Assembly (NCBI GenBank): GCA_024762755.1
Contig: JANTGX010000001.1
Span: 1-32,620 of the forward strand
DNA from: Gammaproteobacteria bacterium
Lineage (GTDB): Bacteria > Pseudomonadota > Gammaproteobacteria > SZUA-152
Direction: 5' to 3'
DNA: 32,620 nucleotides
This document shows, one piece after another, positions 7,608-30,902 of this stretch (its first letter is position 1; every line of letters begins with the position of its first letter). Position numbers and translations under genes: made by a program. The notes below the pieces were generated by a model. It had not been told where the DNA came from. It searched no databases and saw only the letters and a list, made by a program, of their open reading frames with translations.

Positions 7608-9065
7608 CTATTTTCCTACGATGGGGTGTTCGTCATCGGCCGCGGACAAGGCCGCCTCGGCGCGTGCCAGTACCTGCGCGGGATCGTTGTCGCGATGGCG
7701 GTGGATGAGGGTGTAACCACAGCGGATGCCCACCTCGTGGTCCTCGGCCCAGAGGCTCTGGAAGCGGGCCTGCAGCCGTTGCAAGAAGGGTTGCACGCCG
7801 GTCGGCTTCATGTCGAACAGCAACAGGGCGAAACGGTCGTCGCCCAGACGGGCGGCCAGGTCCACCTTGCGGCTGTTCTTCAACAGCCCGCGGCCGAGGG
7901 CGCGGACCGCCTGATTGGCGGCGTCCGCGTCCAGCGCGTCGATACCCTGCAGGCGCACCAGGGCCACGCAGACCGGCATGTTGCGCCGGGCGAAGTCGTA
8001 GGCACGGCTGAATTCCTCGTTGAACTGGCGGCGATTGAGCAGGCCGGTGAGCGGGTCGCGGCGGTTCTGCCGGGCCAGTTGCTGGCGTTGACGATGCAGG
8101 TCGCGGTCGAGGGCTTCGAGGGCCGGGCGCAGCACGGCGGTGTTGCGCAGTTCGGGCAGTAGGGGGCGGGCCTGCGCCGCGGCCAGTTGTCCCAGATAGC
8201 CGCCGATGGCGTTCAGCTCCCGCCGCAGGCGTCGGCGCTGCCGGCGTTGCTGGAGGTACAGGCCGGCGGCGGCCAGCAGCAGGGCGGCGAGGTTGAGTCC
8301 GGCCAGCCAGGGCAGGGGCAGGGCGGCCTGGTCGCTGGGCCGGATCAAACGCAGGCGCCAGTCGGTGCCCTCGATGGGGTGGCCTGCCTCGTCGGCCTCT
8401 CCGCCCGGCCCGGCCCGGGCGATGGGGCGGCCATCGCCGCTGAGCAGTTCGAGGCCCACGCCGGCGGTGGCCTGCCGGGCCAGCAGGGCCTCGATCGGGG
8501 CCAGGGGGAAGGCGACGCGCAGTACCCCGAGCAGGTCGCCCGCCTCGTCCCGCACCGGGCTCAGCAGGTCGAAGTGGGTGGCCGGCTCGGGGTACACGGG
8601 GATGTGGCGCGTCAGGCGCTCGCTGGGCCACTGCGGCAGCTCCTCGATGGCGTAGGACGGGGTCGGCGCATCCGCCACCACGCCGAGCCGGCGCCCGTCG
8701 CGGGTGATCAGGTCCGCCGCCGTGGCCGCCGGCAGGAAGCGCAGGAGCTGCAGGGACCAGCGCAGGGCCGCGTCCTCGTCACCGCTGTCCAGCAGGTCCT
8801 GGGTGGTGGGCTGCTGGGCGAGGGCCGCGAGCAGTCCGCGCAACAGGGCGAGGTGGGCCTGCAGCGGCGCGGCGGCGGCCTGCCGGGTGGGCGCCTCGGC
8901 GGGCGTCGCGGCATGGCGTTGGAGCAGGCCGAGATCGAGGGCCATCACCCCGGCCAGCAATATCAGCCAGGGGGCGGCGGCCAGACGGCGGCGTGGGCGG
9001 GCGGGTGGCGCGCTGGGCGCTGGGGCGGAGACGGCGGGGCCGGCCTGGTCCGGGCTCTGATACAT
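7608..9065 (-). CDS. Membrane sensor protein with a degenerate GGDEF domain (GDDRF, I-site RxxD retained)
   Basis: Start chosen at ATG 9065 (MYQSPDQ...), just before the first TM segment ([16 protein letters not shown]). A second TM ([18 protein letters not shown]) is followed by the GGDEF-domain signature [12 protein letters not shown]. The active-site position reads RLGDDRF (7830-7844), and RKVD (7860-7871) lies 5 residues upstream. Confidence 0.8.
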
Positions 9066-9340
9066 ACGGGTCGGGATCCTCTTCACCCTCTGGGCGGTTC
9101 GGGCAGGGGGTGGCGGTTCATGCGTGTTCGGCTGGCCGTTGCGAGACGGGATAGAGGCAACGGAACCATCCCCTTCCACCACCGGTTCATGGGAAGGCCC
9201 GCTCCTTGGCCCGTCGGCTGCCGCAAGGCGGCAGCATTGAGGTGTAACGCTGTCCGGCCGGCTTTGGTTCCCTCGTGCGCGCATCATCATTCATTGTAAT
9301 ACGGTCAGTCGGACTTTTTATCACACCGTGAGAATGGGGT

Positions 9341-11248
9341 ATGCTCGGCGGGATGCGCGCATTCAGAATCAATCCCCTTTTGTCGTGCCGGCGGCGTGTC
9401 TCGTGCCGACTGGTTGGGCTGTTCCTGCTCGCGGCCCTCGGTGTGGCCAACGCCGGTACGCTCGAGGAGCCGCCCCAGGCCCCGTCTCGGCAGGCGATCC
9501 AAGACGGCCTGGGCGAGGTTCAGGACCTCGCCGCGGCGCTGTACGCCGCCCGCGCCGAACCCCTGCAGACCCAGTTACAGGTGTTGTTCTCCCTGCGCCC
9601 GGATCGCCGTTTTGGCCTGCAGGGCATCACCCTGTCGGTGGATGGCGAACGCATGGCCGAACACACCTATTCGGCCGCCGAGATCGCGGCCCTCGCCGAC
9701 GGCGCCGCTCAGCCCCTGCTCAGTCTGCATCTGCCGCCCGGCGAACACCGCCTGACGGCCCACTGGCAGGGCGAGGCACCGCGCAGCGAACAGTTGCAAC
9801 GCGGCCTGGCGTGGTCTGTGCGCAGCGGCCAGGGCCGGCAGGTGGTGTTGCTGCAGCTGGCCCGGGCGGAGGGGGAGGATCTGCCCCGCCTCACGGCGCG
9901 GCCGGTGACGAGGCTGCTCGCGATCCAATACCGGGCGGCCCGTTTCGAGCAGGCTCTGGGTCGGCCGCTGGCGGCCAGCGCGCGCCTGTTGGCCGAGCGT
10001 GGGTTCGAGACCGGGGCGTCGACCGAGGACGTCGACGCCCTGCTGGCCGAGCTGTATCTGCAGCAGGGTCTGACCCTGCGCGCCGCTGCGCAACTACAGC
10101 GGCTGGCTAGGGCCGATGACCGCAGCTGGCTGTCTCTGGCCCGCCAACAGGCATGGACGGGAGATGCCGCCGGCGCCCTGCAGGCCCTGGCACGCATCGG
10201 CGACGGCCTGCCCGAGGCAATGGCGCGAGAGCGCGTGTTGCTCGAGGGCCGACTGCTGTTGGCGGTCGGGCGACTGCCGGCGGCCAGGCAGCGCCTGCAA
10301 CGGCTGGTGGAGGACGGGGGAAGGGCCGACGAGGCAGCCTATGGCCGCTTCAATCTGGCCGTGGCGTTGCGGCGTGAGGGCGACGCCGAGGCGGCGCGCG
10401 AGGCCCTCGATGAGCTGGGCCGGGCCAGGGGCGGCGGCGCCGAGCGCCAGGCCCTGCGCGACAAGGCCAATCTCACCCTCGCCTACGACCGTCTGCAGGC
10501 CGGTGAGCTGGAGCCGGCCGCCCGCTACTTCAAACGGGCGCGTCTCGAGGGTCCCCTCTCCAGTACCGCCCTATTGGGCCTGGGGCGGGTGTATGCCGCC
10601 GAGGAGGCCTACAAAAAGGCCCTGGTGCCCTGGCTGCGCCTGAGCAAGCGCGACCCCTCCGACCCCGCCGTGCAGGACGCCCTGCTGGCCGTGCCTTATG
10701 CCCTGGGCAAGCTGAATGCCTACAAACAGGCCTTGGCCTACTACAAACAGGCGGTGGCCAGCTTTCGCTTGGAGGCGGAGCGCCTGGCCAAGATCCGGCA
10801 GACGGTGGACGACGGCAGCCTGGTGCAGACCCTACAGCGGGCCTTCGTCGAAGAGGCGGGGGGTCTGTCGCAGGCACGCCTGCGTCGCCTGCCGGCGGCC
10901 ACCGGTGCCACGCACCTGTGGCAGCTTTACTCCACCAACCTGTTTCAGCAGGACCTGAGGAACTCTGCGCAGATCACCGGGTCATTGGAGAAAATCCATC
11001 GCTGGACGTCAGAGATATCCAGCGATAGCCGTCTGGCCACTGTGCGCCGCCGCGCCCTGCTGGCCCAGGCCGCCGATCTGGAGAACCGATTGAAGCCGTT
11101 GTCCCACCAGCTAGAACAGCACATGCAGGGTCTCGCCCGGCAGGAGTTGAGCCGCCGCGACGAGCGCATCAAGGCCTATGCCGAGGAGGCCCGCTTCTCC
11201 ATCGCCCAGATCTACGACTACGCGGCCAAGCGCTGGGGCGAACGTTAA
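9341..11248 (+). CDS. Secreted TPR-repeat protein (cluster gene 1)
   Basis: 635 aa. Signal peptide LVGLFLLAALGVANA-G. The C-terminal two thirds are Ala/Leu/Arg-rich helical repeats of TPR type. The start could instead be Met5 (9353). Confidence 0.8.
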   Translation: MLGGMRAFRINPLLSCRRRVSCRLVGLFLLAALGVANAGTLEEPPQAPSRQAIQDGLGEVQDLAAALYAARAEPLQTQLQVLFSLRPDRRFGLQGITLSVDGERMAEHTYSAAEIAALADGAAQPLLSLHLPPGEHRLTAHWQGEAPRSEQLQRGLAWSVRSGQGRQVVLLQLARAEGEDLPRLTARPVTRLLAIQYRAARFEQALGRPLAASARLLAERGFETGASTEDVDALLAELYLQQGLTLRAAAQLQRLARADDRSWLSLARQQAWTGDAAGALQALARIGDGLPEAMARERVLLEGRLLLAVGRLPAARQRLQRLVEDGGRADEAAYGRFNLAVALRREGDAEAAREALDELGRARGGGAERQALRDKANLTLAYDRLQAGELEPAARYFKRARLEGPLSSTALLGLGRVYAAEEAYKKALVPWLRLSKRDPSDPAVQDALLAVPYALGKLNAYKQALAYYKQAVASFRLEAERLAKIRQTVDDGSLVQTLQRAFVEEAGGLSQARLRRLPAATGATHLWQLYSTNLFQQDLRNSAQITGSLEKIHRWTSEISSDSRLATVRRRALLAQAADLENRLKPLSHQLEQHMQGLARQELSRRDERIKAYAEEARFSIAQIYDYAAKRWGER

Positions 11249-11249
11249 T

Positions 11250-14081
11250 ATGCGTCTGCGTCATTGGCTGCCCGTCGGGGCGTTGCTGCTGTCCGCCTGT
11301 GCCGGGGAGCAGACCCTGGAGGATCTCGGTGAGCTGGAGATCAAGATCGAGGACGACGCGCCCATCGCCGGCGCCCGTGACAAGGCCATGGACACCTACT
11401 GGGAGTTCATGTCCACCACCGCCGAGAAGGAACAGAAGGTCGAGGCCATGCGGCGCCTGGCCGATCTGGAGATGGAGCGCAGCGACGAGCGCTTCCAGCG
11501 GCAGATGGAGGTGCTCGACCGCATGGCCGAGGGTGAGGGCGCCGATCTGGCGACCCTGCGCGAGGTCACCTACCGCGGCGCCATCAAACTCTACGAAGAT
11601 GCACTGAAGGTGGCGCGCGGCGGGCCGCAGGAGCCCATCCTGCTGTATCAGCTGTCCAAGGCCTACGAGCAGGCAGGCCGCCAGCAACAGACCGTGGATG
11701 CCCTGCAGGCCCTGATCAAGCTGCGGCCGGAGGCCGAAAACCGCGACGAGTTGCACTTTCGCCGCGGCGAGATCCTCTTCGACATGCGACGCTTCGCCGA
11801 GGCGGAGCAGGACTACGCCGCGGTGGCCGCGCTGGGACTGCGCAGCAGCTACTACGACAAGGCCCTGGCCAAACAGGGCTGGTCGGCCTTCAAACAGGAG
11901 CACTACACTCAGGCCCTGGACGCCTTCACCGCCCTCATCGATCGCAAGTTGCGCACGGCCGATGGACGCATCGTCGATGACGACAGTCGCCTGAGCACCG
12001 GCGATCGCGAGCTGCTGCGGGACATCTTCCGGGTGGTCACCCTCAGCGTCAAGGAACTGGGCGGGGCGCCGGCCATCGCCCGCTACTTCGAGGCCAAGGG
12101 GCAGCGCCCCTACGAGCTGCGCCTGTACCGGGATCTGGGCGACTTCTATCTGCAGCAGGAGCGGATCCAGGACGCGGCCCTCACCTACCAGGCCTTCGCC
12201 CGCGCCTATCCGCTGCACCCACAGGCCTTCGAGTTCGACCTCGAGGCGATGCAGGCCTATGCCCGCGCCGGCTATGCCGGCCCCCTGATGCAGGCCAAGC
12301 AGGCGTTCGTCCGCCGCTACCGGGTCAACGGCCCCTTCTGGCGCCATCACATCGAGCACGAGACCACGGTGCTGGCCCGCCTGCGCCCCCTGCTGCGCAG
12401 CAATTCCGAGGACGTCGCCCGCTACCTGCACGCCCAGGCGCAGAAGACGAAGCGGGCCGAGGACTACCAGCGTGCCTTCATCTGGTACAAGCAGCACCTG
12501 AAGTGGTTCAACAAGAGCCGCAAGGCAAAGGAGCTCAACTTCCTCTACGCCGAGCTGTTGTTCGAGGCCGGCGACTACGCGCAGGCGGCCAAGGAGTACG
12601 AGAAGACCGCCTACGGTTATCTGCGCTACGGCAAGGATGCCGAGGCCGGGTATGCCTCCCTGCTGGCCTACACCGAGCACGAGAAACAGCTGACGGGCAA
12701 GCAGAAGGAGATCTGGAGTCGCCTGGCGGTGGGCAGCGCCCTGCGCTTCGGCAAGACCTTTCCCGACGACCCGCGCGCGGCCAAGGTCTTGACCCGCGCC
12801 GCGGAGGACATGTTCGCCCTGAAGAAATATCAGCAGGCGGCGGTGGCGGCGCGGCAGATCCTCGAGCTGTCCACCAAGACCTCGCCGCAGACCCGGCGCA
12901 CGGCCTGGAAGATCATCGCCCGGGCGGAGATCGAGAAGGGCGACTATGCGCGCGCCGAGGTGGCCTACAAGGTCGCCCTGAGCCTGACGCCGAAAGAGGA
13001 CGAGACCTCGCGCAGGCTGTTGCAGGACGGCCTGGCGGCGGCGGTGTACAAACAGGGCGAACAGATGCGGGCCAAGGGCAACCTGCAGGGGGCCATCACC
13101 CAGTTCACGCGGGTGGGGACGGTCGCCGCCGGCTCGGCGGTGGCCAGCGCCGCCGAATTCGACATCGCCAGTAGCCTGTTGACCACCGGCGACTACCGGG
13201 CAGCCATCGAGGCCCTGGCCAGCTTCCGGGAGGCCAATCCCGACAGCGAGTTGCTGCCCAAGGTGAGCCAGAATCTCATCCTGGCCTATCAGAAGACCGG
13301 CCAGCCGGGCATGGCGGCGCGCGAGCTGGAGCGTTACATGGCCCTGCAGAAAAAACCGGAGCTGCGCCGCGAGGCCCTCCTGCAGGCCATCGAGCTGTAC
13401 CAGGAGGCGGGCGAGACGGCGCGTGTGGTGGATGCCTACGAGCGTTATCTGCAAGCCTTTCCACGGCCCTTCGAACAAGCCATGGAGATCCGCCACACGC
13501 TGGCCGGCCTGGCCCGCGAGAGGGGTGACATGAGCGCCCTGCGCCGCTGGCAGGAGGCGCTGGTGCGGGAGGAACGGGCGGCGGGTACGGCGAGTACGCC
13601 GCGCACCCGCTTCCTCGCCGCGCAGGCGGCCTTCGACCTGGCCCAGCCGAGCCTGGCGGCCTATCGGCGGATCGAACTGGTGGCGCCCCTGAAGCAGAAC
13701 CTGAAGCGCAAGAAGGCGCAGATGCAGCGCGCGGTGGAGGCCCTCACCGAGGTGGCCAACTATGGGGTGGCCGAGGTGAGCACGGCGGCCACCTACCAAC
13801 TGGCCGAGGTCTATGCCGGGTTTGCCCAGGCGTTGATGGATTCGGAGCGCCCCGCTGGCCTCGACGACGAGGCGTTGGAGCAGTACGAGATCCTGCTCGA
13901 GGAACAGGCCTATCCGTTCGAAGAGAAGTCCATTACCCTCCACGAGTCCAACGTGGCCCACGTCAAGGAAGGAATATTCGACGACTGGGTGAAGAAGAGC
14001 CTGGCGCGCCTGCGCGAACTCAAGCCTTTCCGTTACGCCAGGGCCGAACGCCCTGAACCACTCGTCGAAGGTATTCGATGA
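11250..14081 (+). CDS. Large TPR-repeat lipoprotein (cluster gene 2)
   Basis: 943 aa from ATG 11250, 1 nt after the TAA of the upstream gene (TAATATG). Lipobox LLLSAC. TPR-like repeats run throughout (YQLSKAYEQAGR..., YAELLFEAGDYAQAAKEYEK...). Confidence 0.85.
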   Translation: MRLRHWLPVGALLLSACAGEQTLEDLGELEIKIEDDAPIAGARDKAMDTYWEFMSTTAEKEQKVEAMRRLADLEMERSDERFQRQMEVLDRMAEGEGADLATLREVTYRGAIKLYEDALKVARGGPQEPILLYQLSKAYEQAGRQQQTVDALQALIKLRPEAENRDELHFRRGEILFDMRRFAEAEQDYAAVAALGLRSSYYDKALAKQGWSAFKQEHYTQALDAFTALIDRKLRTADGRIVDDDSRLSTGDRELLRDIFRVVTLSVKELGGAPAIARYFEAKGQRPYELRLYRDLGDFYLQQERIQDAALTYQAFARAYPLHPQAFEFDLEAMQAYARAGYAGPLMQAKQAFVRRYRVNGPFWRHHIEHETTVLARLRPLLRSNSEDVARYLHAQAQKTKRAEDYQRAFIWYKQHLKWFNKSRKAKELNFLYAELLFEAGDYAQAAKEYEKTAYGYLRYGKDAEAGYASLLAYTEHEKQLTGKQKEIWSRLAVGSALRFGKTFPDDPRAAKVLTRAAEDMFALKKYQQAAVAARQILELSTKTSPQTRRTAWKIIARAEIEKGDYARAEVAYKVALSLTPKEDETSRRLLQDGLAAAVYKQGEQMRAKGNLQGAITQFTRVGTVAAGSAVASAAEFDIASSLLTTGDYRAAIEALASFREANPDSELLPKVSQNLILAYQKTGQPGMAARELERYMALQKKPELRREALLQAIELYQEAGETARVVDAYERYLQAFPRPFEQAMEIRHTLAGLARERGDMSALRRWQEALVREERAAGTASTPRTRFLAAQAAFDLAQPSLAAYRRIELVAPLKQNLKRKKAQMQRAVEALTEVANYGVAEVSTAATYQLAEVYAGFAQALMDSERPAGLDDEALEQYEILLEEQAYPFEEKSITLHESNVAHVKEGIFDDWVKKSLARLRELKPFRYARAERPEPLVEGIR

Positions 14082-14707
14082 CGATTTCCACCGAAGCGAG
14101 GAACCCACCCGTGCATAGCCGGAAATGGATACTGATGCTGCTCGTCCTGTGGTTGGCCGGCTGCGCCACCACGCCGCAGGAAGAGGGCGCCGAGCAGGCG
14201 CAGGCCAAAGCGCCGGGGACGGGCGTCGAAGCCCAGGCCAAGGCGGCCTTCGAACGCGCCCTGGCGGCCATGCGCGAAGGTCACGACGCGGAGGCCGCCC
14301 GCCTGTTCCAGCAGATGACGCAGACCTACCCGACACTATCCGGCCCACATGCCAATCTCGGCATCCTCGCCTTTCGTGCCGGCAAGCTGGACGAGGCCGA
14401 GGCGGCCTTCAAGCGCGCCCTGGCGTTGAATCCCAAGAGCGCCGTGAGCCTGGACTACCTCGGTGTCATCGCCCGCGAGCGCGGCGACTTCGAGCAGGCC
14501 GAGTCCTATTATCGGCAGGCCATCGCCGCGCGGCCCACCTACCCCAACGCTCACCGCAACTACGGCATCCTGCTCGACATCTACCTCGGGCGCCTGGACG
14601 AGGCGCTGGCCCAATACCGCGAATACGCCAAGTTGAGCGGCGGGGAGGACAAGCAGGTGGCGAAGTGGATCGTCGATCTGGAGCGCCGCACGGGGGCGAA
14701 GAAATGA
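14078..14707 (+). CDS. TPR-repeat lipoprotein (cluster gene 3)
   Basis: 209 aa. ATGA overlap with the upstream gene. Lipobox LWLAGC. Canonical TPRs are present (AEAAFKRALALNPKSAVSLDYLGVIARERGDFEQAESYYRQAIAARP). Confidence 0.85.
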   Translation: MTISTEARNPPVHSRKWILMLLVLWLAGCATTPQEEGAEQAQAKAPGTGVEAQAKAAFERALAAMREGHDAEAARLFQQMTQTYPTLSGPHANLGILAFRAGKLDEAEAAFKRALALNPKSAVSLDYLGVIARERGDFEQAESYYRQAIAARPTYPNAHRNYGILLDIYLGRLDEALAQYREYAKLSGGEDKQVAKWIVDLERRTGAKK

Positions 14708-14988
14708 GCCGCGCGATGGTGTTGTCTGCCGCCCTGCTGCTGAGCCTCGGTGCGCGGGCGGAGGATCGTCTGCAATTGGACGAGGCGGCCATCAAGGGCA
14801 CCCGCGAGTTGCCCAAGGTGCTCTATATCGTGCCCTGGAAGAGCGCCCGCCTCGGCGCCCTGGTGGGCGGGGTCGGCAGCCAGTCGCTGGGCGTGGGCTG
14901 GGACGTGCTGGACGACGAAGAATTCCGCCGTCAGGTGGCCTACTTCGAAATGCTGTATCCGGATAGTGGTTCTCCGGAGGTGCGCTAG
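14704..14988 (+). CDS. Small secreted protein of unknown function (cluster gene 4)
   Basis: 94 aa. ATGA overlap with the upstream gene. Signal peptide MSRAMVLSAALLLSLGARA-ED. It is the in-frame tail of track ORF 14125..14988, whose N-terminal part is off-frame junk overlapping the TPR gene. Confidence 0.65.
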   Translation: MSRAMVLSAALLLSLGARAEDRLQLDEAAIKGTRELPKVLYIVPWKSARLGALVGGVGSQSLGVGWDVLDDEEFRRQVAYFEMLYPDSGSPEVR

Positions 14989-15070
14989 TTCCCGTTGTGC
15001 GCTAAAGTTCGCCGTCGTTTTTGCCGACGAAACAGCACGACAATCAACGAATTGTGAATTTGATCAACAC

Positions 15071-15090
15071 GCCCCAAGGTGACTTGGGGC
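15071..15090 (+). other. Perfect 8-bp hairpin capped by a GNRA-type tetraloop, in the only long gap of the cluster
   Basis: GCCCCAAG-GTGA-CTTGGGGC. No T-tract follows it. Confidence 0.5.
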
Positions 15091-15178
15091 AAGCTAGAGG
15101 CTTCGTGCAGCAGGGCATGGGGTCGTCACGCCGGATTTCGACGCCGATATCCGACGCGGGTTTTCGAGGAGACAAGGT

Positions 15179-15835
15179 ATGGATGGCGTAACAGCAATCG
15201 TTAAATTCTTCCAAGATGGTGGCGTGTTCATGTACGCCATCCTGCTGGTGTTCGCCTTTGGCGCCGCCATCGCCTTGGAGCGCTACATCTATCTGACCAA
15301 GGCCAAGCTGGTCAATCGCAGCATGTGGAACAAGTTGACGCCGCTGGTACAGGCCAACAACTTCCAGCAGGCCATGGCCCTGGCCGGCAAGTCGAAGAGC
15401 GACGTCGGTCACATCCTGGCCTACGGCCTCAGCCGCCTGCAGACCACCAAGCGCCGCGACGACATCGAGATGGCCATGGACGAGGGCCTGATGGAGGTCA
15501 TCCCGCGCCTGGAGAAGCGCACCCACTACCTGGCCACCTTTGCCAATATCGCCACCCTGCTCGGTCTGTTGGGCACCATCATCGGCCTGATCCAGGCCTT
15601 CACCGCGGTGGCTAACGCCAACCCGGCCGACAAGGCCGACCTGCTCTCGGCGAGTATCTCGGTGGCCATGAACACCACCGCCTTCGGCCTCATGGCGGCG
15701 ATCCCCCTGCTGCTCATGTATACCGTCTTGCAGACCAAGACCACGCAGCTGGTGGACAGCCTGGAGATGGCCGCGGTGAAGTTCCTCAACTCTTTGACCG
15801 AATTCCGCAACCCCAGCGTCCGTAAGTCGGACTGA
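15179..15835 (+). CDS. MotA/TolQ/ExbB proton-channel family protein (cluster gene 5)
   Basis: 218 aa with three TM segments. C-terminal signature LGLLGTIIGLIQAF...AMNTTAFGLMAAIPLLL. RBS GAGGAGA upstream. Confidence 0.93.
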   Translation: MDGVTAIVKFFQDGGVFMYAILLVFAFGAAIALERYIYLTKAKLVNRSMWNKLTPLVQANNFQQAMALAGKSKSDVGHILAYGLSRLQTTKRRDDIEMAMDEGLMEVIPRLEKRTHYLATFANIATLLGLLGTIIGLIQAFTAVANANPADKADLLSASISVAMNTTAFGLMAAIPLLLMYTVLQTKTTQLVDSLEMAAVKFLNSLTEFRNPSVRKSD

Positions 15836-15849
15836 CAGGGCCGCCAGCG

Positions 15850-16347
15850 ATGTCGATCAGGGCCCGAGTCAGGCGCGCCAAACCGGACGCGCCGGAGCTG
15901 GATATCACCGCCTTCATGAATCTCATGGTGGTGTTGGTGCCGTTCCTGCTGTTGTCCGCGGTGTTTTCCCACCTCTCCGTCCTCGAACTCAACCTGCCGC
16001 CGGACACTCCGCAGCAGGCGGCCAACAAGGACAAGAAAAAAGAGCGCAACTTCGAGGTCGTCGTGCGCAAGGACGAACTGGTGGTGGCCGACACCCTCGG
16101 CGGCGTCATCAAGCGCCTGCCCAAGCGCGACGGGCGATACGATTTCAAGGCCCTCTCCGATCTGCTGGTGGCGCTCAAACTCAAGTTTCCGCAGAAGCAG
16201 AACATCAGCCTGCTGCTGGAACCGAACATCCCCTACGAGACCTTGGTGCAGGCCATGGACACGGTGCGAGAAGTGACCGTGGTGGAATTCGCCCAGGCGG
16301 TGCGCAAGGAGCTGTTTCCGCAGATCGCCATCGGTGACGCCCCATGA
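15850..16347 (+). CDS. ExbD/TolR family protein, paralog 1 (TM Asp replaced by Asn)
   Basis: 165 aa. N-terminal basic segment, then a single TM (DITAFMNLMVVLVPFLLL) and a periplasmic domain. Asn24 (15919-15921) aligns by eye with ExbD Asp25 / TolR Asp23. Confidence 0.85.
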   Translation: MSIRARVRRAKPDAPELDITAFMNLMVVLVPFLLLSAVFSHLSVLELNLPPDTPQQAANKDKKKERNFEVVVRKDELVVADTLGGVIKRLPKRDGRYDFKALSDLLVALKLKFPQKQNISLLLEPNIPYETLVQAMDTVREVTVVEFAQAVRKELFPQIAIGDAP

Positions 16348-16853
16348 AGGCCTCGCGTCGCGCCCGGCGCATGAGTCAGCATCACGCGCGCAACAAACGT
16401 GCGGCGGGGCTGAACATGGTCTCCCTGATGGACATCTTCACCATCCTGGTGTTCTTTCTTCTGGTGAGCTCTTCCTCGGTACAAGACCTGCCCAATGCGA
16501 AGCAGATTCAGTTGCCGGAATCCACCTCCCAGCAGTTGCCCAAGGAGACGGTGGTGATCACCGTCAACCAGGCGGGTATCGTCGTGCAGGGGCGCAAGGT
16601 GGCCGAGGTCACGGGGTTGACGGGCAATGACGACAAGCCCATTCCCGCGCTCAAGGCCGAGCTGGAGAATCTGGCCAAGCGCAAGCTGACGCAGACCGGT
16701 GCCGACGGCAAGCCGGTGATGCGCGAGGTCACCATCCTCGGTGACAAGTCCATCCCCTTCAAATTGCTCAAGCGCATCATGCTCACCTGCACCCAGGCCA
16801 ACTACGGCAACATCTCCCTCGCCGTGCTGCACAAGACCGAGGGCGAGGGATAG
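16344..16853 (+). CDS. ExbD/TolR family protein, paralog 2 (TM Asp conserved)
   Basis: 169 aa. ATGA overlap with paralog 1. The TM is LNMVSLMDIFTILVFFLLV, with Asp30 at 16431-16433. Confidence 0.9.
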   Translation: MKASRRARRMSQHHARNKRAAGLNMVSLMDIFTILVFFLLVSSSSVQDLPNAKQIQLPESTSQQLPKETVVITVNQAGIVVQGRKVAEVTGLTGNDDKPIPALKAELENLAKRKLTQTGADGKPVMREVTILGDKSIPFKLLKRIMLTCTQANYGNISLAVLHKTEGEG

Positions 16854-16856
16854 TCC

Positions 16857-17828
16857 ATGGCCAGTCTTTACCGCCAGTACATCCTGCCCTGGACGCCGCT
16901 ACCCGACGACGATGGCTTGCTCAAACGCATCCTCATCGTGGTGCTCGCGGTGACCGTGGTGCTCAGTGTGGTGATCCCCTTCATCCCGGTGCCGAAGGAA
17001 GACCGTAACAAGGTCGAACCGCTGCCACCGCGCCTGGCCCAGTTGGTGATGGAGAAGCAGAAGCCCAAGCCGAAGCCGAAACCCAAGCCGGTCGAAAAGA
17101 AGAAGGAAGAAAAGAAGGCGGAGAAGAAGAAAGAGGAAAAGAAGAAAAAACCGCCGGAAAAGAAAAAGGTCGCGAAGAAGCCGGAACCGAAAAAGGTCGT
17201 ACCGCCCAAGCCCAAGGTGGATCGCGTCGCCGAGGCGCGGAAGAAGGCCGCGAGCACGGGCCTGCTGGCCTTTTCCGACGAGTTGGCCGATCTGCGCGAG
17301 GTGCCCAAACTCAAGCAGGGCAAGCCCCTGGTGAAGGGGGCCAAGGCGGCCAAGCCGCGCGCCCGCAAGGTGCTCACCGCGGGCCCGGCGAGCAGCGGTG
17401 GCATCGACACCTCCGGCCTGAGCAGTGGCGTGGGGCGGAGCGAGTTGGCCGGGCGGCAGATCACCCAGGTGGAGAGTCCGTCGGAACTGGTCGCTGCGGC
17501 CAAGCCGGCGGAGGCCGCGGCCAAGCCCGGCAAGAAACCCTCGCGCACCTACGAAGAAGTATCGTTGGTCTTCGATCGCAACAAGGGCGCCATCTATTCC
17601 CTCTACAGCCGCGCACTGCGCAAGGACCCCACCCTGCAAGGCAAGGTGGTGCTGGAGATCACCATTGCGCCGTCGGGCAAGGTGACGAAGTGCCGTATCG
17701 TCTCCAGCGAGCTGAACAACCCGCGTCTGGAGCGCAAGCTGGTCTCACGGGTGAAGATGCTCAACTTCGGCGCGCGTGACGTCGACACCCTGGTCGTCAC
17801 CTACCCCATCGATTTCCTGCCCTCGTAG
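16857..17828 (+). CDS. TonB-like energy-transducer protein with a C-terminal domain of AgmX/PglI type (cluster gene 8)
   Basis: 323 aa. N-terminal TM (ILIVVLAVTVVLSVVIPFI), then the linker QKPKPKPKPKPVEKKKEEKKAEKKKEEKKKKPPEKKKVAKKPEPKKVVPPKPK. The C-terminal roughly 90 aa read IYSLYSRALRKDPTLQGKVVLEITIAPSGKVTKCRIVSSELNNPRLERKLVSRVKMLNFG. RBS GAGGGA upstream. Confidence 0.8.
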   Translation: MASLYRQYILPWTPLPDDDGLLKRILIVVLAVTVVLSVVIPFIPVPKEDRNKVEPLPPRLAQLVMEKQKPKPKPKPKPVEKKKEEKKAEKKKEEKKKKPPEKKKVAKKPEPKKVVPPKPKVDRVAEARKKAASTGLLAFSDELADLREVPKLKQGKPLVKGAKAAKPRARKVLTAGPASSGGIDTSGLSSGVGRSELAGRQITQVESPSELVAAAKPAEAAAKPGKKPSRTYEEVSLVFDRNKGAIYSLYSRALRKDPTLQGKVVLEITIAPSGKVTKCRIVSSELNNPRLERKLVSRVKMLNFGARDVDTLVVTYPIDFLPS

Positions 17829-19225: not shown

Positions 19226-22200
19226 TCAGAATCTGCGTGTCTTTCGAGTAAGGCTGGGTGCTAGCATAAAAACTAAGGTAAGCAGTTGCCAGGCATCAAT
19301 ACTCCCTCCAGAAACCGAACCACTATTCTCAAGATGATCCGGCTGTAGAGCAGCGTCCTCTCCGGTATCACCATCAGCAGCCACATCACCAGAGCCAGTA
19401 CTGCCCGACGAATTATCCACGCCGCCAGAGGTAGGATTTAGTCCTCCCGCCACATTCCCGGCGCTACCGTCTGGTGCTGCGTTTACCGTAACCGTAAGAC
19501 TACGCACAGCATTGCCGGCACTACCTTCGCAGGTCAGCACGAAGCGCGTATCTGCACTTAGCGGCCCCACAGTCTCACTGCCAGAAGGTCCTTTGATTCC
19601 TGACCAGCCACCGTCGGCCACGCATTTTCCCGCATCGGACGAAGACCAGCGCAAACTTACACTTGAACCGCTGTCCACACTGGCGGCACTGGAAGTAAAA
19701 TCCAATGAAGGATATGGCGTGGAGGAACCGCTACCCTCTGCCAGCTTATAGAGGAAGACATTTTGGTCAATGGCATTGACCAGCACATAGAGGTTTTTCG
19801 AAGGTATGTAGCGAAAGCGGCCATAGGTTCCCATGGCGCTGGGTCGGCTGGGGACAACCAAGTTACTTTTGGCGGCATCCATGCGATACCACACCAGGGA
19901 ATCTGGATCCAGGGCATAGACTTTATCTCCGCCATTCCAGGCAACGAAGCGGTCGGTCTTTGGATCGAAGACAAAACCAGCGGCTTTCGAGTCCTCGATC
20001 TCGTTTGCTCCCGTTGTGGGGCTCCATCCACCGGACACCGAAGCGGGGTCGGCGATGTCGTACACGACGGTCATGGCAGGCCCACCATAATTCGTGCCAC
20101 CGATGTAGACCAGTTTGCGACGATTCGGATCGATGGCCCCTGTCATGTAATACTCAAAGTCCGCGTTATCGAGATAGGTATTCCATGGATCCGAGGGATT
20201 GAGTGGATCGTATCGCTGCAATTTGCCATCCTTGACGAGCCAGACGTGGCCGGTAACCGAATCGTAGGCGGTTAAATTGCCGCAGCCACCCGGACCATCT
20301 GCCACCTTCTGCCAACCACTCTCAGCAGGAACCTCATCGAAATCATACAGCCATGTTGCACCCTGACAACCACCACTCCCGGGTACTGAGCCACCGGCAC
20401 TGAAGAAGCGATCGATATTAGGAAGGTATTCTAGACCGTTATATGTATGGCGGGAGGAAGGAAGGCCATCAAGGTAGATGTCTGAATTCAATTGACGCTG
20501 ATCAGCTGGGGTATCCAATGTGAGCTGCTGCCAATGCAGTGAGTTTATATCGAAAGCATAGAGCTCATTGCCATAATAGTTGTTGTGCCCGCCACCCCAA
20601 ACCACAAGACGATCGCGTTTGGTATCATAGGCCGCACCACTCCAGGGTTCCATGACATTTGGTTTGATACCACCGAGTTGGCTATAGATACTGGACTCCG
20701 GTACCTCGTACCAGTGCCCGGCCGGCAAGCTATCGAGCACGCTACTACTGGCCGCCGGGGCAGATATCATCACGGCTTTCGATCGCGCTGATTCGTTGCC
20801 TGCACCATCGAAGGCCGTGACTTGGTATGTATGTGTCGTACCAGGCGGCATGGACCGATCAATGAATCCGCTGGTGCCTGTTGTACCAATGAGTGCATCG
20901 TCGCGATAGATGTCATAACCGGCGACAAACATATCATCTACGGGAATATCCCACTTCAGGTAACTCTCCTGCGGAGAGACGGCGACCACGTGTAAGCCTG
21001 CAGGTATCTGCGGCGCAGTACCATCATTCAGCGGCAAGGCGCTGGCAAGCCACGAAACCTCGTCGGGGGATAGAGTTCGGGCATAGATACGCAAGTCGTC
21101 CAGGGCACCGTTCAACGCATTGCCCCATTCCGTGCTGTATTTCCCATTGTATACACCGACACTGAGCTTTCCGGATACATCCAGTGCCTGGGTACGACCG
21201 ATGTCCTCGGCCCGGAAGGCTTCCACGCCATCCTTATAGATCACCAGCACGCCATTACGTTTATGCCATGTCACTGCCACGTGGTGCCAGCCACCGTCAT
21301 CCAGGGCAATACCCGTGCTGACATCCCTGTCAGTGACTGGTTTCTTGAGGAATGTCATCCCTAGATCGCGCAGATTGAAGATCCGTAGTTGCTCGGTCAG
21401 CATGTCATCGGACATAAACGACAGAATGACCCGAGATCGATCACCTTCACCATTGCTTCGCACCCAAAAGGCGATGCTCAACTCGCTGTTGGAAAGGCCA
21501 CTGAGCGGCACAGAGACCCGGTCTCTCCGTGTGCTGTCGAACTGCATGGCGGTTCCGAGCATACCCGTGTCGGACACCGGGATCTCTTTGGACTTTCCGT
21601 CGTTACCCAGCCCGCTGCGGTCGATGATAGTGGCGTCGGTCAGCCCATCGAAATCCCAGTGCATCACCAGACCGGGTGCTGCATGGGCCATGCTGCTCGC
21701 CAGCACAAGTCCGCCAACGAGCAGCAGGTGAAAATTCCTGCCGCCTTTCCTGTCCAGGAGACGAGATACAAGACTGCGATACATCAGCAACATACTCAAA
21801 AGGATGAGTCCCCAGGGGGTGGTTGCACCGGCGCCGATCTTTTGGGCAACAGTAGTGGCATCAACCACTGTACTCGCGGCGTCTCCGTTTCCGTTGTCAC
21901 CACTGCTATTACTATCGCCACTGCTACTGCCACCGCCAGCGGTACTGCTGCTACCGCCACTATTACTACCATTATCGCTCCCCGATACCCTGATCAGCAC
22001 CGAACGTGTCGTTTCACCACCACTCCCAGAGCATTTCAAGGTATATACCGCATCACTCTGTAATTCGCTTGTGGCGTAAGTTCCGCTAAACTCTTTTTGC
22101 CCAGACCACGCACCACTTGCCACGCACCCGTCGGCGGAAGCAACAGACCAGCTCAGGTTGGCAATACCACTTGCAGGAACCTCGAAGCTATCTGCCGAAA

Positions 22201-24325
22201 AGTTCACCTTTGGACCACCCAAAGCCGAATCCAGTGAAAGTGGGGTAATAGCAAACTGTGGATCACTGGCATAATCTCTCGAGCTCGGATCACTGAAATC
22301 GCGAGGGTACTTCATTCGACCGACCAGCTTATTCCAGGCGGCATCGGCATTGGGGTAACCATAGTCGACGGCAAGCGCCAGCGCAGGTTGTAGATTGGAC
22401 GGGTAGCCCTCCGGGTTTGATGAATGTCCCGCCATTTCACCCGCCGCATACACCTTATTGCCATAAGGGTCGGTTTCAGTCAGCCAATTGGCCATTTCCT
22501 GCCCGCCACAGGCCATATCCTTGACATAGGTTCCCTGGCTGTCCTGCTTGTTACCAAAGGTATTCAGGTATACCTCCCCCAGACTCTGATACCAGTCATC
22601 CGGTGTGGCGACAATGCCATACACATGTTTGCCAATCGCCAGTTGATACACACCGCCAAAGATCCAACAGTAGACGTCGTCTGGCGAACTCATCCGTTCC
22701 ACGGGATACTTGGACTTCCATTGCAACATGGGCAGGAATTCGTCAAATCCCAAATTGACGATATAACCCGTCGCCCATGTGAAAAAGTCATCCATCCAGG
22801 GTGCAGAGGTATCCAGTTCACGATGGTGTGGCAAGGCGCCGAGCTTGTTGGCGTCTGGATTATTGGGGAATTGCTGTAGGTAGTAATCCAGATTGCGCTG
22901 CAACCGGTCACCAAAATAATCCTTCATGGGATGATTGTCGGGTGTAATGTATGCAGCTTGTGCCAAGGTGCGAAGGCCCCAGGCCTGGCCGCGAACTTCC
23001 TCTCCCTTTAGCAGCCCATCTCCATACTGACGCTTGCCAAGACTGGCTGAAATCATGTTCCCATTGGCCCAGAACAACAGTTCATCCAGATAAAAGTGAT
23101 CTCCGGTCAGCAAATAGGGAAGAAAGGCAAAGGAAGGTTGGTGCGCGGTATCTTTGCTATGAGGAATAGCACAATCAGTTGAGCATAGTGCAATAACATT
23201 GTCATTGGGATTCTGTCGTGAATCCCCGGTCACATTCGGGTAGTCGTCCAGTGAGACTGGCAAATCGGTATTGATATCCCGTAGGTGAGCGGCATAGGAG
23301 CCGGCAGCATCCCCATTGGCAAGCACGCTGCGATAGGCACGGTAATCCCCACTCACGATATAACGTGCCGCCCAACGGGGTAATGGTGCGATGCTGAAAT
23401 CTGCACCCCCAGCAGACATCCGCAACCGATTGCGCATATCCGCAAGCCCCATGGGTTCATAGACAGTCTTCCCCTGGCTCTCCAGCACATCCTCCGGAAT
23501 GGTTAACGCAGGATCATAGTGCGGCACCGCTTTGGTCTGCTGTAAATATTTTACGTCGTGACGAACGTATATCTTTGGCTGCGTGCCCCACCAGAATACC
23601 TTGTGCCAGCGCGCACGTTGATAGTGCGTCAGCTGGCCCTGGCGGTAAGCCTCCCGCCCTCCCACCAGAACACGGACGTCGTAGGTAAAATTCCGTGGTT
23701 CGGGAACATAGGTCCAGTTGTTCTCAACAATGGCGTCTACACGCACCGTACCCAAGCCACGATAAGCCCTGATATCAAAACGCGCCGTCAGATGCGGATG
23801 TGCTACACCATTTTCCGTGGTGAATTTTTCTTTAAGCAGAAATTCCGTCACTAGTGGACCTGATAACCAGCGATGGCTGCTATCGACATTCAGGGCATTT
23901 CGAGCCGAAGCGGTATACACCACCCCATCAAGGGTCAGCTCGATCACCGCATCAAAAGACGTATCGAGCAGGTCTGCGGCGCTCACAGGCACGCCGACCG
24001 CCGTTACATCACCCTTCGTCAGCTCAGATGCCAGCTGGTCGCCCCCCTGTAATGGCGGCAATTCAGTCGTGATCACGGCGTGACGCAGGGAGCCATCGCG
24101 GTGAGTCGCCTTGACATCGACTTGGGTTGGCAACTGCGCGCCCCCAACCTTGACAACAACGCCCGAACCCACAGGTACCTCGCCCTCCGAAAATACCTGC
24201 GCAAAGGTCACCGGTACACCGTCGACGGCTATCCCGCTTTGATCAATAAAAGTCACTTCTGGCATCGCCTGAGCGTTCCCAGCAGTAAGCAGCATCACAA
24301 ACACGGCGGACAACAAGCGACTCAT
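19226..24325 (-). CDS. Giant secreted multidomain protein (1699 aa from ATG 24325): two secreted-protein architectures in one reading frame
   Basis: The ORF is open from 24526 (GTG). A classical signal peptide MSRLLSAVFVMLLTAGNAQA-MP starts at ATG 24325. The order is as follows: an unrecognised domain of about 700 aa; an Ig-like Cys module; a Ser/Gly linker; a hydrophobic-basic tail; a second signal-peptide-like segment. After that come a LamG/ConA-like domain, FN3, a Kelch-like beta-propeller, a second Ig-like Cys module, a second Ser/Gly linker and the tail SGGSIDAWQLLTLVFMLAPSLTRKTRRF. Confidence 0.85.
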   Translation of the reverse strand: MSRLLSAVFVMLLTAGNAQAMPEVTFIDQSGIAVDGVPVTFAQVFSEGEVPVGSGVVVKVGGAQLPTQVDVKATHRDGSLRHAVITTELPPLQGGDQLASELTKGDVTAVGVPVSAADLLDTSFDAVIELTLDGVVYTASARNALNVDSSHRWLSGPLVTEFLLKEKFTTENGVAHPHLTARFDIRAYRGLGTVRVDAIVENNWTYVPEPRNFTYDVRVLVGGREAYRQGQLTHYQRARWHKVFWWGTQPKIYVRHDVKYLQQTKAVPHYDPALTIPEDVLESQGKTVYEPMGLADMRNRLRMSAGGADFSIAPLPRWAARYIVSGDYRAYRSVLANGDAAGSYAAHLRDINTDLPVSLDDYPNVTGDSRQNPNDNVIALCSTDCAIPHSKDTAHQPSFAFLPYLLTGDHFYLDELLFWANGNMISASLGKRQYGDGLLKGEEVRGQAWGLRTLAQAAYITPDNHPMKDYFGDRLQRNLDYYLQQFPNNPDANKLGALPHHRELDTSAPWMDDFFTWATGYIVNLGFDEFLPMLQWKSKYPVERMSSPDDVYCWIFGGVYQLAIGKHVYGIVATPDDWYQSLGEVYLNTFGNKQDSQGTYVKDMACGGQEMANWLTETDPYGNKVYAAGEMAGHSSNPEGYPSNLQPALALAVDYGYPNADAAWNKLVGRMKYPRDFSDPSSRDYASDPQFAITPLSLDSALGGPKVNFSADSFEVPASGIANLSWSVASADGCVASGAWSGQKEFSGTYATSELQSDAVYTLKCSGSGGETTRSVLIRVSGSDNGSNSGGSSSTAGGGSSSGDSNSSGDNGNGDAASTVVDATTVAQKIGAGATTPWGLILLSMLLMYRSLVSRLLDRKGGRNFHLLLVGGLVLASSMAHAAPGLVMHWDFDGLTDATIIDRSGLGNDGKSKEIPVSDTGMLGTAMQFDSTRRDRVSVPLSGLSNSELSIAFWVRSNGEGDRSRVILSFMSDDMLTEQLRIFNLRDLGMTFLKKPVTDRDVSTGIALDDGGWHHVAVTWHKRNGVLVIYKDGVEAFRAEDIGRTQALDVSGKLSVGVYNGKYSTEWGNALNGALDDLRIYARTLSPDEVSWLASALPLNDGTAPQIPAGLHVVAVSPQESYLKWDIPVDDMFVAGYDIYRDDALIGTTGTSGFIDRSMPPGTTHTYQVTAFDGAGNESARSKAVMISAPAASSSVLDSLPAGHWYEVPESSIYSQLGGIKPNVMEPWSGAAYDTKRDRLVVWGGGHNNYYGNELYAFDINSLHWQQLTLDTPADQRQLNSDIYLDGLPSSRHTYNGLEYLPNIDRFFSAGGSVPGSGGCQGATWLYDFDEVPAESGWQKVADGPGGCGNLTAYDSVTGHVWLVKDGKLQRYDPLNPSDPWNTYLDNADFEYYMTGAIDPNRRKLVYIGGTNYGGPAMTVVYDIADPASVSGGWSPTTGANEIEDSKAAGFVFDPKTDRFVAWNGGDKVYALDPDSLVWYRMDAAKSNLVVPSRPSAMGTYGRFRYIPSKNLYVLVNAIDQNVFLYKLAEGSGSSTPYPSLDFTSSAASVDSGSSVSLRWSSSDAGKCVADGGWSGIKGPSGSETVGPLSADTRFVLTCEGSAGNAVRSLTVTVNAAPDGSAGNVAGGLNPTSGGVDNSSGSTGSGDVAADGDTGEDAALQPDHLENSGSVSGGSIDAWQLLTLVFMLAPSLTRKTRRF
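19715..20734 (-). other. Kelch/galactose-oxidase-like beta-propeller region within the giant ORF
   Basis: Repeated blade-like segments are present (WSGAAYDTKRDRLVVWGGGHNNYYGNELYAFDINSLHWQQL; GHVWLVKDGKLQRYDP; RFVAWNGGDKVYALDPDSLVWYRM). Boundaries are approximate. Confidence 0.6.
20759..21016 (-). other. Fibronectin type III domain within the giant ORF
   Basis: The stretch APQIPAGLHVVAVSPQESYLKWDIPVDDMFVAGYDIYRDDALIGTTGTSGFIDRSMPPGTTHTYQVTAFDGAGNES matches the FN3 pattern. Confidence 0.75.
21041..21679 (-). other. LamG / concanavalin-A-like lectin domain within the giant ORF
   Basis: The stretch LVMHWDFDG...IDRSGLGNDG...GTAMQFD...SIAFWVR...WHHVAVTWHK..VLVIYKDG...GALDDLRIYARTLSPDEV is the classical Laminin_G_3 pattern. 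Confidence 0.8.
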
Positions 24326-24933
24326 GCGCCGAATCCCACCAGCAAGTAGCCAATCGGATGATAACGCTATGCTTCTGGCTGCGGGCACCTTCTTCCTATT
24401 GCGTTGCTTCGTAGCAATAATGACCCGATTCGTTATTTGCATATTCACATCAGTGCTCCAAAATTGGTCACGAGACGCTAAACTCTGTATCTGCCTTGTA
24501 TCATCGCTCACAGGAAAATGCGTCACGTGATCCGCGTCACAAAGCCTAGAAGCTACATTTTTCTCTTTACATACAAAACTTCACGGTTGTCCGCGTGAAT
24601 ACGCAGTATCTGGGTTGCTGGGGCATTGAGGCGGCAGGCGATTATTTAAACCATTGTGTACAAGGTCCAGGCGGTTCGGGGCCGGTTGACTGAGCATTAT
24701 CGTATCCATCTGCTGACAGTTCGACCTATTCATCATGGTTGCATGTTCTAGAGGGGGCTCGATCCATTGGAACGGCTTGCTATTGATCGCGGCGATTTTG
24801 CCAGTGCTTCGATACGAAAGGCCGAGTTTGAACGCTTCATCAATGTCCGGAATGCGAAAGGCGCGGAGCTATTTTAGTGGATCAAACCGGCAAGTCGGAT
24901 TCTGACAGCCGTTGGTCATGCAAAGGAGTCGTT

Positions 24934-28457: not shown

Positions 28458-28487
28458 GGCGTGTTCCTCGTCGATGGGGGCGCCGGG

Positions 28488-28997: not shown

Positions 28998-29035
28998 GGC
29001 GCTATACTGCCGTCGATCACGCGTCGGGAGACCCC

Positions 29036-29935: not shown

Positions 29936-29993
29936 GGCCCCGCGCTTGTCCGGGCTGCGTCGAGTCCCATGCCGACCGTGCGGCGCCACGGGC

Positions 29994-30860: not shown

Positions 30861-30902
30861 CTCAACGTCACCGCGCCCGCCTGCGCCACTGTCTCGCGCC
30901 GC

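Follow-up and report, generated by a model that had tools for sequence, protein, structure and literature searches.

A gene cluster of the stand-alone Agl-Glt core-complex type in an uncultured gammaproteobacterium, with a conserved small secreted protein and an apparently fused first gene

A cluster of eight co-directional genes at positions 9341-17828 of a 32,620-nucleotide stretch of DNA from an uncultured gammaproteobacterium (NCBI GenBank assembly GCA_024762755.1, contig JANTGX010000001.1, positions 1 to 32,620; this whole stretch is hereafter called the window) encodes tetratricopeptide repeat (TPR) proteins, a small secreted protein, an ExbB/TolQ-type channel subunit, two ExbD/TolR paralogs and a TonB-like protein, and raises the question of which envelope machine such a set of genes specifies. 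In a preliminary description, made from the sequence alone, the locus had been read as an Agl-Glt-type core cluster, and it had been stated that clusters of this kind, of unknown function, occur in proteobacteria that do not glide. That statement is borne out by the literature (Luciano et al. 2011), and the reading is supported by the composition of the cluster, the gene order, the protein sizes, the score of the transducer with the model NF033768 and the synteny with related loci, so that the locus very probably belongs to the Agl-Glt core-complex class. The class is already known and published, and the locus is a further member of it which adds no new principle; new here are the apparent fusion in the first gene, an asparagine at the proton-relay position of one stator paralog, the conserved protein of 94 amino acids (aa) and the redox-type genes found beside the cluster in distant relatives.

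The genes are listed below with the evidence for each, followed by the size of the corresponding proteins in the published core clusters (Table S3 of Luciano et al. 2011).

9341-11248, + strand: GltC-like TPR protein with a fused N-terminal module (U1), 635 aa; signal peptide, TPR_16 and TPR_19 (Pfam); published 550-692 aa
11250-14081, + strand: GltD-like TPR lipoprotein, 943 aa; lipobox LLLSAC, multiple TPR families (Pfam); published 933-1016 aa
14078-14707, + strand: GltE-like small TPR lipoprotein, 209 aa; lipobox LAGC, TPR_2 (Pfam); published 162-263 aa
14704-14988, + strand: X94, secreted protein, 94 aa; signal peptide, no known domain; published as a small extra gene, one locus tag skipped
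15179-15835, + strand: AglR-like proton channel subunit of the TolQ/ExbB/MotA family, 218 aa; MotA_ExbB 103 bits (Pfam); published 217-245 aa
15850-16347, + strand: first ExbD/TolR paralog, in the AglQ position, 165 aa; ExbD 54 bits (Pfam); published 168-188 aa
16344-16853, + strand: second ExbD/TolR paralog, in the AglS position, 169 aa; ExbD 70.6 bits (Pfam); published 162-185 aa
16857-17828, + strand: GltG-like TonB-like transducer, 323 aa; N-terminal transmembrane (TM) helix, KP/KE linker, C-terminal domain; published 321-371 aa, 535 aa in Thioalkalivibrio

The open reading frames (ORFs) were found as they had been described, tightly packed on one strand, and the junctions were exact: a single nucleotide (nt) separates the genes at 11249, neighbouring genes overlap by ATGA at 14078, 14704 and 16344, and the remaining spacings are 190, 14 and 3 nt. 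The earlier count of nine genes had to be corrected to eight for the window; relatives have nine, the gene for the 635-aa protein being two genes there. The TPR domains of the first three proteins, the ExbB/TolQ channel and both ExbD/TolR paralogs were confirmed with Pfam, and the two lipoboxes, the secreted 94-aa product and the TonB-like protein with its KP/KE linker were present as stated. The 4-nt overlaps and very short gaps indicate co-translation, and, to judge from lipoboxes and signal peptides, the four non-motor proteins are periplasmic or sit at the outer membrane. Neither the 190-nt internal gap nor the rest of the window yielded anything informative in promoter and terminator scans or an Rfam scan.

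The core complex was defined by Luciano et al. (2011; PMC3169522) as seven Group B genes, gltC, gltD, gltE, gltG, aglR, aglQ and aglS, accompanied by one extra gene which has no homologue in Myxococcales, in the order gltC-gltD-gltE-[small extra gene]-aglR-aglQ-aglS-gltG. It was reported, with unknown function, from non-gliding beta- and gammaproteobacteria and Geobacter (Methylibium, Cellvibrio, Hahella, Marinobacter, Saccharophagus, Shewanella frigidimarina, Teredinibacter, Thioalkalivibrio and Geobacter), and the core genes were found not to be sufficient for motility (PMC3169522). Examples are Mpe_A1224-1231 of Methylibium petroleiphilum, CJA_3312-3319 of Cellvibrio japonicus, and Maqu_1595-1602 and Maqu_1807-1814 of Marinobacter (PMC3169522). 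The core was suggested to be a 'basal transport machinery' (Wartel 2013); its function was still called unknown in papers from 2013 and 2020, and the later literature found on it holds only statements to that effect. In the window, GltC-, GltD-, GltE- and GltG-like proteins are encoded in one cluster with one TolQ/ExbB-like and two TolR/ExbD-like proteins, an extra small gene (the 94-aa ORF) lies inside the cluster, the transducer has a C-terminal domain of the GltG/GltJ type, and the cluster stands alone, with no gliding-specific Group A genes attached. The families, their order and their strand are the same as in the published stand-alone clusters, which also have a small unnamed gene between the gltE-like and aglR-like genes and no attached receptor or gliding-specific genes, and the sizes are almost identical: 635/943/209/94/218/165/169/323 aa in the window against 634/941/243/-/217/170/163/371 aa for Mpe_A1224-1231. 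The window differs from these clusters in its host, another and uncultured gammaproteobacterium, and in the GltC-like protein, which is fused to an upstream secreted module of about 180 aa by a deletion of about 75 nt.

The co-occurrence survey that had been proposed was carried out with a profile search for the 943-aa protein in a collection of one genome per species; the best 80 of at least 591 matching stretches (loci labelled L001 onwards) were scored for gene order with the eight proteins of the window as tblastn queries. In 59 of the 80 loci the genes run C-D-E-X-R-Q-S-G on a single strand, as in the window, most of the others being cut by contig ends, and chance falls far short of explaining how the same eight genes recur in the same order and on the same strand. 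Represented among the 80 loci are Ectothiorhodospiraceae, Chromatiales, Acidiferrobacterales, Thiodiazotropha/Sedimenticolaceae, Woeseiaceae, Steroidobacteraceae and Burkholderiales including Methylibium, and the full-length identity of the loci to the GltD-like protein is 37-72 % (41 % for the Methylibium sp. locus L038); the nearest named record is a metagenome-assembled genome of Ectothiorhodospiraceae, with 72 % identity for this protein. Partial clusters with TPR genes only (GltC-GltD-X or GltC-GltD-GltE-X), followed by several kb of downstream sequence without motor or transducer genes, were found in at least two loci, L016 (8001-13041) and L019 (8301-13711). Hahella HCH_02601-02603 is similar to these partial clusters, which presumably rely on a shared motor whose genes lie elsewhere.

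The flanks of the cluster bear on whether it serves a receptor. As had been stated, the flanks of the cluster in the window contain neither a TonB-dependent receptor nor any of the genes tolA, tolB and pal, and the second TonB (29994-30860, - strand; TonB_C 58 bits) adjoins a TonB-dependent receptor (30903-32579, - strand). Among the clustered flank ORFs of the 80 loci no receptor family was recurrent, and a single TonB-dependent receptor was present among 31 large unclassified flank ORFs, in L002, where it is the orthologue of the distant BtuB-like receptor of the window. No Fur box was matched in the window at up to 3 mismatches. Co-variation with TonB-dependent receptors or Fur control, which the preliminary description had named as signs of an ordinary accessory TonB system, was thus not observed in the 80 loci and the window, respectively.

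The transducer has a cytoplasmic N-terminus of about 22 aa, one TM helix, a Pro/Lys/Glu linker, conserved mid-segments and the GltG/GltJ-type C-terminal domain, which is also conserved. This domain is probably not a canonical TonB_C: it scores 71.1 bits (cutoff 40) over residues 232-320 with NF033768, the NCBIfam model of the AgmX/PglI C-terminal domain, and 23.5 bits with Pfam TonB_C, below the cutoff of 24.6; the other TonB of the window served as an internal control for the Pfam model. Residues 57-320, the whole periplasmic part, align to positions 375-645 of the 650 positions of the GltG model NF033760, with 45.7 bits against a cutoff of 650, and no PDB sequence was matched at E<1, TonB and TolA domains included. 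PglI is GltG according to Text S2 of Luciano et al. 2011 (PMC3169522), and AgmX would therefore be GltJ. Between the linker and the C-terminal domain, the segments LPPRLA.LV, ARKKAA..GLLAF.DELADLR and SGGI.T..LS are conserved. In the published model of the M. xanthus machine, GltD is central and is gripped by the linker and C-terminal domain of GltG, the linker lying in a groove of GltD and the domain at the GltD N-terminus, while GltE, GltC and a small bridging protein, which adds a strand, lie alongside GltD (PMC11761067). The conserved mid-segments of the transducer, together with a motif that follows the lipid anchor of the 943-aa protein (below), fit this GltG-GltD model.

The AglR-like subunit, whose identity across related loci is 52-89 %, is neither a TolQ nor an ExbB equivalog, since both NCBIfam scores are far below cutoff (TolQ 70.3 bits, cutoff 221; ExbB 46.6 bits, cutoff 206.2); against PDB sequences, ExbB (6e-9) and TolQ (3e-8) were matched about equally well. 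For the two paralogs, the ExbD equivalog models gave 17.5 bits against cutoffs of 123-153 and the TolR equivalog 26.2 bits against 127.3 (NCBIfam). The first paralog has Asn24 at the position of the usual TM proton-relay Asp, and in an alignment of 67 sequences, the window included, this column is Asn in 50 and Asp in 17, the latter mostly from Steroidobacteraceae-type loci as judged by record titles. The second paralog has kept its TM Asp (D30), as have all 67 of its sequences. In M. xanthus, where experiments have established that AglR interacts with GltG and that the motor depends on Asp, the AglQ exchange D28N abolishes proton conductance (PMC3858216). With Asn in the first paralog, Asp in the second and a non-conducting AglQ D28N, the core stator is, by analogy with M. 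xanthus, probably asymmetric, with a single protonatable Asp per heterodimer.

The GltD-like protein has 659 homologues, nearly all of 930-960 aa, and its 943 aa lie within the range of GltD homologues in core clusters. The mechanical ORF begins at 11178; the start at 11250 is supported by homologues of 943 aa which cover it at 100 %. The protein includes a YfiO/BamD-like stretch (Pfam) and a YbgF-like stretch which, with 62.7 bits, is below its cutoff of 90.1 (NCBIfam). It is probably anchored in the outer membrane, because its lipobox has Ala at +2, and directly after the lipid anchor the strand-like motif TLxxLGELxIKIE is conserved; the protein is the likely central scaffold of the assembly. 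On the opposite strand, an ORF of 1059 aa (11169-14348, -) is longer than the real 943-aa gene which it overlaps, a typical high-GC artefact that would mislead gene calling by longest ORF. The 209-aa lipoprotein, within the size range of GltE homologues, also carries Ala at +2 of its lipobox, has TPR_2 with 75.7 bits (Pfam) and keeps its position in the cluster in relatives (tblastn). With NCBIfam it scored 60 bits for PilW, 54 for Tgl and 49.6 for GltE, all so far under the cutoffs that the similarity is that of TPR lipoproteins generally. NCBIfam models for GltD, GltC and AglRQS were absent from the matches at E<=10, and the kinship of the TPR proteins with the Glt proteins is indicated indirectly, by an architecture identical to that of the core clusters and by identity to relatives.

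The size and position of the 635-aa protein fit the GltC (MXAN_2541) homologues of the published core clusters. It has a signal peptide, and its AlphaFold2 model, of high confidence (pLDDT, the predicted score of the local distance difference test, 88.4; predicted template modelling score, pTM, 0.83), shows a helix at 50-72, an immunoglobulin (Ig)-like beta-sandwich at 78-188, a TPR solenoid at 192-457 and long C-terminal helices at 461-632, and a YbgF/CpoB-like TPR stretch scores 33.2 bits (NCBIfam). Foldseek gave only generic TPR matches for the full model and no significant match for the N-terminal module alone, for which generic Ig-like or transthyretin-like sandwiches were best (E 2.6e-3, template modelling score 0.36). 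In 40 of the 80 loci the two parts are separate, as a secreted protein of about 180 aa followed by a TPR protein of 468-476 aa with its own signal peptide, and the TPR part in the window is of the short type (about 470 aa) of its clade. The closest relative, L081, with 83 % identity over the 943-aa protein, has an unfused 180-aa secreted gene and a 468-aa TPR gene, and the near homologues are unfused throughout. Compared with L081:2400-2640 and L004:1830-2070, the window (9800-10020) has an in-frame deletion of about 75 nt which takes out the stop codon of the first gene and the signal peptide of the second; from the sequence, this could be a real event or an assembly error. Fusions of 748-824 aa have arisen independently in other lineages, and because of these it can be argued that the two proteins act together.

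The 94-aa protein, hereafter X94, had no match in Pfam or NCBIfam. It was found by tblastn in 77 of the 80 loci, always between the gltE-like and aglR-like genes, and an exhaustive search at E<=1e-3 gave a family of 632 representative clusters. The motif ELPKVLYIVPWK is highly conserved, with invariant P and W and several further positions at 95 % or more, and is followed by the segment D.(D/E)VFRRQ. Judged by this conservation, X94 is a real, conserved component of the cluster. In the published core clusters a locus tag is skipped at its position (Mpe_A1227, CJA_3316, Tgr7_0540), which fits the 'additional gene' of Luciano et al. 2011, and X94 is most likely that gene. It is proposed as an adaptor, and by analogy it may take the role of the small strand-adding protein of the M. 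xanthus model.

The locus is likely to be an operon for a stand-alone envelope-spanning transducer driven by the proton-motive force, namely the Agl-Glt core complex, related to the Agl-Glt/Agl-Nfs motor and its periplasmic part. Gene content, family assignments, synteny and the missing link to receptors are established directly from the comparisons above; for the stoichiometry, the protein contacts and the output, we infer a general mechanism from the Myxococcus and Tol/Exb paradigms. The AglR-like subunit, probably a pentamer as in the solved ExbB and TolQ complexes, would form the proton channel of the inner membrane and surround one pair made of the two TolR/ExbD-like paralogs, in which only the second has the protonatable TM Asp. 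Proton flow would be turned into conformational work in the single-pass GltG-like protein, whose Pro/Lys-rich linker would span the periplasm and whose mid-segments and GltG-type C-terminal domain would bind the GltD-like scaffold, probably anchored in the outer membrane. The GltE-like protein, the GltC-like protein with its Ig-like module, here fused, and X94 would complete the periplasmic and outer-membrane assembly. The output may be mechanical work on a partner or cargo of the outer envelope, such as a polymer or protein that is handled or exposed, or tethering of the outer membrane, and would be neither the opening of a TonB-dependent nutrient receptor nor movement of the cell.

Several points weigh against this assignment. 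The literature searched contained no experiment on a core complex that stands alone; searches with the locus tags of the published core clusters found nothing, and searches with 'adventurous gliding motility protein' and the host genus names found nothing relevant. The TPR proteins are tied to GltC, GltD and GltE through relatives and not through the M. xanthus sequences, and the 49.6 bits of the 209-aa protein with the GltE model, against a cutoff of 225, are weaker than those with PilW and Tgl and hence unspecific. With Asn in its first ExbD paralog, the stator might be non-canonical or regulatory. The transducer passes the cutoff of TIGR01352, the TonB C-terminal model (32.9 bits against 27.1), and is thus formally a TonB-family protein as well. 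Finally, the window is one whole contig of an uncultured host, and receptors or partners may be encoded elsewhere in its genome. The last two points, with the presence of MotA_ExbB and ExbD domains, also favour an accessory TonB-ExbB-ExbD system for receptors encoded elsewhere, in which the TPR proteins would be accessory, as in the multi-gene TonB clusters of other bacteria. In common with TonB-ExbB-ExbD, the window has channel and plug proteins of the same superfamily and a TonB-like topology in which the linker is rich in Pro and Lys, but it has no receptor partner, no Fur control, a divergent C-terminal domain which fits the GltG/GltJ type and stays under the Pfam TonB_C cutoff, and obligatory TPR lipoprotein partners. 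The equivalog scores for ExbB and ExbD fall far short, the flanks of the 80 loci show no recurrent receptor family, and a canonical TonB with a receptor is encoded separately in the same window, which together make an accessory TonB system very improbable.

A paralog of Tol-Pal that tethers or invaginates the outer membrane for envelope integrity, with the TPR lipoproteins in place of TolB, Pal and CpoB, overlaps with the preferred core-complex explanation and differs from it only in the output of the same machine. Of the NCBIfam models, TolQ scored highest with the channel and TolR with the second ExbD paralog, YbgF/CpoB-like TPR stretches are present in the 943-aa and 635-aa proteins, AglRQS is called TolQR-like in the literature, and Tol-Pal likewise combines a proton channel of the same superfamily with a periplasm-spanning transducer, a TPR partner and an outer-membrane lipoprotein. 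It is nevertheless improbable, because every Tol model is far below its cutoff, two TolR-like paralogs are present instead of one, the transducer domain is of the GltG/GltJ type, and no TolA, TolB or Pal gene was found in the window or in the flanks of relatives. A gliding machine as in Myxococcus or Bdellovibrio is hardly credible, although the seven core gene families are common to the window and the Myxococcus machine. The motor of M. xanthus Agl-Glt (AglRQS with GltA-K and CglB) is TolQR-like, as is that of the window, and likewise includes two TolR-like paralogs. Both systems further have a TonB-like transducer whose C-terminal domain is of one type, three kinds of TPR protein (a large central one, a small lipoprotein and a periplasmic one) and, between gltE and gltG, a gene for a small periplasmic protein. 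The M. xanthus counterparts are much longer, at about 1200 against 943 aa, about 450 against 209 aa and 650 against 323 aa. In the window all genes are in one operon, and the first TolR-like paralog has Asn in place of the essential D28 of AglQ. Within the 32.6-kb contig nothing recognisable was found of the barrel and adhesin module (GltA/B/H/K, CglB), GltI, GltJ, AglZ or MglA, nor of GltF among the Group A genes in the flanks, and the GltG-like protein, with its short cytoplasmic part, is without the FHA domains that couple to the cytoplasmic platform. The cluster is therefore not a motility machine, as it has neither the outer-membrane nor the cytoplasmic gliding modules and the core genes were insufficient for motility in the work of Luciano et al. 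A precedent for work other than motility is the spore-coat machine Agl-Nfs of M. xanthus, in which the same motor and a Glt-like periplasmic set serve the transport and compaction of a surface polysaccharide; it differs in having the outer-membrane proteins NfsA/B/C/H and the Exo polysaccharide export genes, whereas there are no polysaccharide genes beside the cluster of the window.

A further reading concerns the redox-type genes of distant relatives. Of 79 related loci, 53 have at least one such gene no more than about 10 kb away from the cluster; these genes encode an ApbE flavin transferase, a TlpA-like redoxin, the flavinylated barrel DUF3570, which is a known ApbE substrate (PMC8238504), a heme-motif/LamG protein, a DUF1585-like protein, a 540-aa protein with a twin-arginine translocation (TAT) signal and a cytochrome c of about 1000 aa with a hydrazine-synthase-alpha-like domain. 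They are upstream in L009, L015, L037, L039, L043, L063, L068, L074 and others, and downstream in L012, L020, L021, L028-L030 and others, with ApbE downstream of the cluster in Thiodiazotropha; where the spacing was inspected, it was operon-like, the genes lying immediately upstream on the same strand and either overlapping or separated by 3-35 nt. Many of the carrier organisms oxidise sulfur or iron or are electroactive. The core machine might accordingly be a general energiser or positioner of extracytoplasmic redox modules, in which X94 (through ELPKVLYIVPWK) and the post-anchor strand of the 943-aa protein may dock the C-terminal domain of the transducer as TonB-box-like strands, and in which the change from Asp to Asn in one paralog would give an obligately asymmetric stator; this extended reading is held to be rather doubtful. 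None of the redox-type genes listed is found in the window or its nearest relatives, and the redox link is therefore a lead for the class and not a property of the locus.

From 2011 onwards the stand-alone Agl-Glt core complex has stayed an orphan among envelope machines, and it is thought to be ancestral to the gliding and spore-coat assembly of Myxococcus. The cluster is widespread, with at least about 590 stretches and with carriers that include many sulfur-oxidising gammaproteobacteria and Burkholderiales. The comparison sharpens the problem: the true conserved unit consists of nine modules, two of them unnamed small secreted proteins, its stator is usually asymmetric, with Asn in one paralog and Asp in the other, and the class is often co-located with periplasmic redox and flavinylation genes and has no link to TonB-dependent receptors. 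Concrete experiments can be set up in tractable carriers, namely Cellvibrio, Marinobacter, Methylibium and Shewanella frigidimarina.

The upstream flank of the cluster in the window encodes BipA, a solute-binding protein, an ATP-binding cassette (ABC) transporter, a flavin mononucleotide (FMN) reductase and one divergent gene directly before the cluster:

7608-9290, - strand: dCache protein with a degenerate GGDEF domain (RLGDDRF); GGDEF 57 bits, dCache_1 23.3 bits, below its cutoff of 45 (Pfam)

Orthologues of this protein with 34-41 % identity are in the same divergent position in L001-L004, and the arrangement is the same in L081-L083. Its conservation next to the cluster is clade-specific, and it does not belong to the core. 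It may act as a regulator, sensor or receptor, and from its degenerate motif it is probably not an active cyclase.

Downstream, the flank holds an SprA-related gene, a 1766-aa LamG protein, cobalamin genes, the canonical TonB and the TonB-dependent receptor. The SprA-related gene (PF12118; 17904-18452, - strand) is convergent with the cluster and has been kept just downstream of it in the closest relatives (L081:10602-11207, L002:17017-17247); in L081 it is followed by a 75-aa gene with a weak match to the C-terminal part of flagellar basal-body-rod proteins. The region 26048-32579 (- strand) encodes CobS and a protein of the histidine-phosphatase family, which may be CobC-like, and then the canonical TonB and its receptor near the end of the contig. 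By Rfam no cobalamin riboswitch was found in the window, and a leader would lie beyond the contig end. The 1766-aa ORF (19226-24526, - strand) lies in an island of low GC content (52-57 % against about 67 % elsewhere) and has a Laminin_G_3 domain and a weak match to Kelch repeats. It was considered as a counterpart of the LamG proteins adjacent to the cluster in relatives and was rejected as such, there being no sequence similarity beyond the domain type. Two hydrophobic-plus-basic segments resembling C-terminal sorting signals, at about residues 900-930 and at the very end, suggest that the ORF consists of two fused genes or arose by internal duplication, and it is probably a horizontally acquired surface protein.

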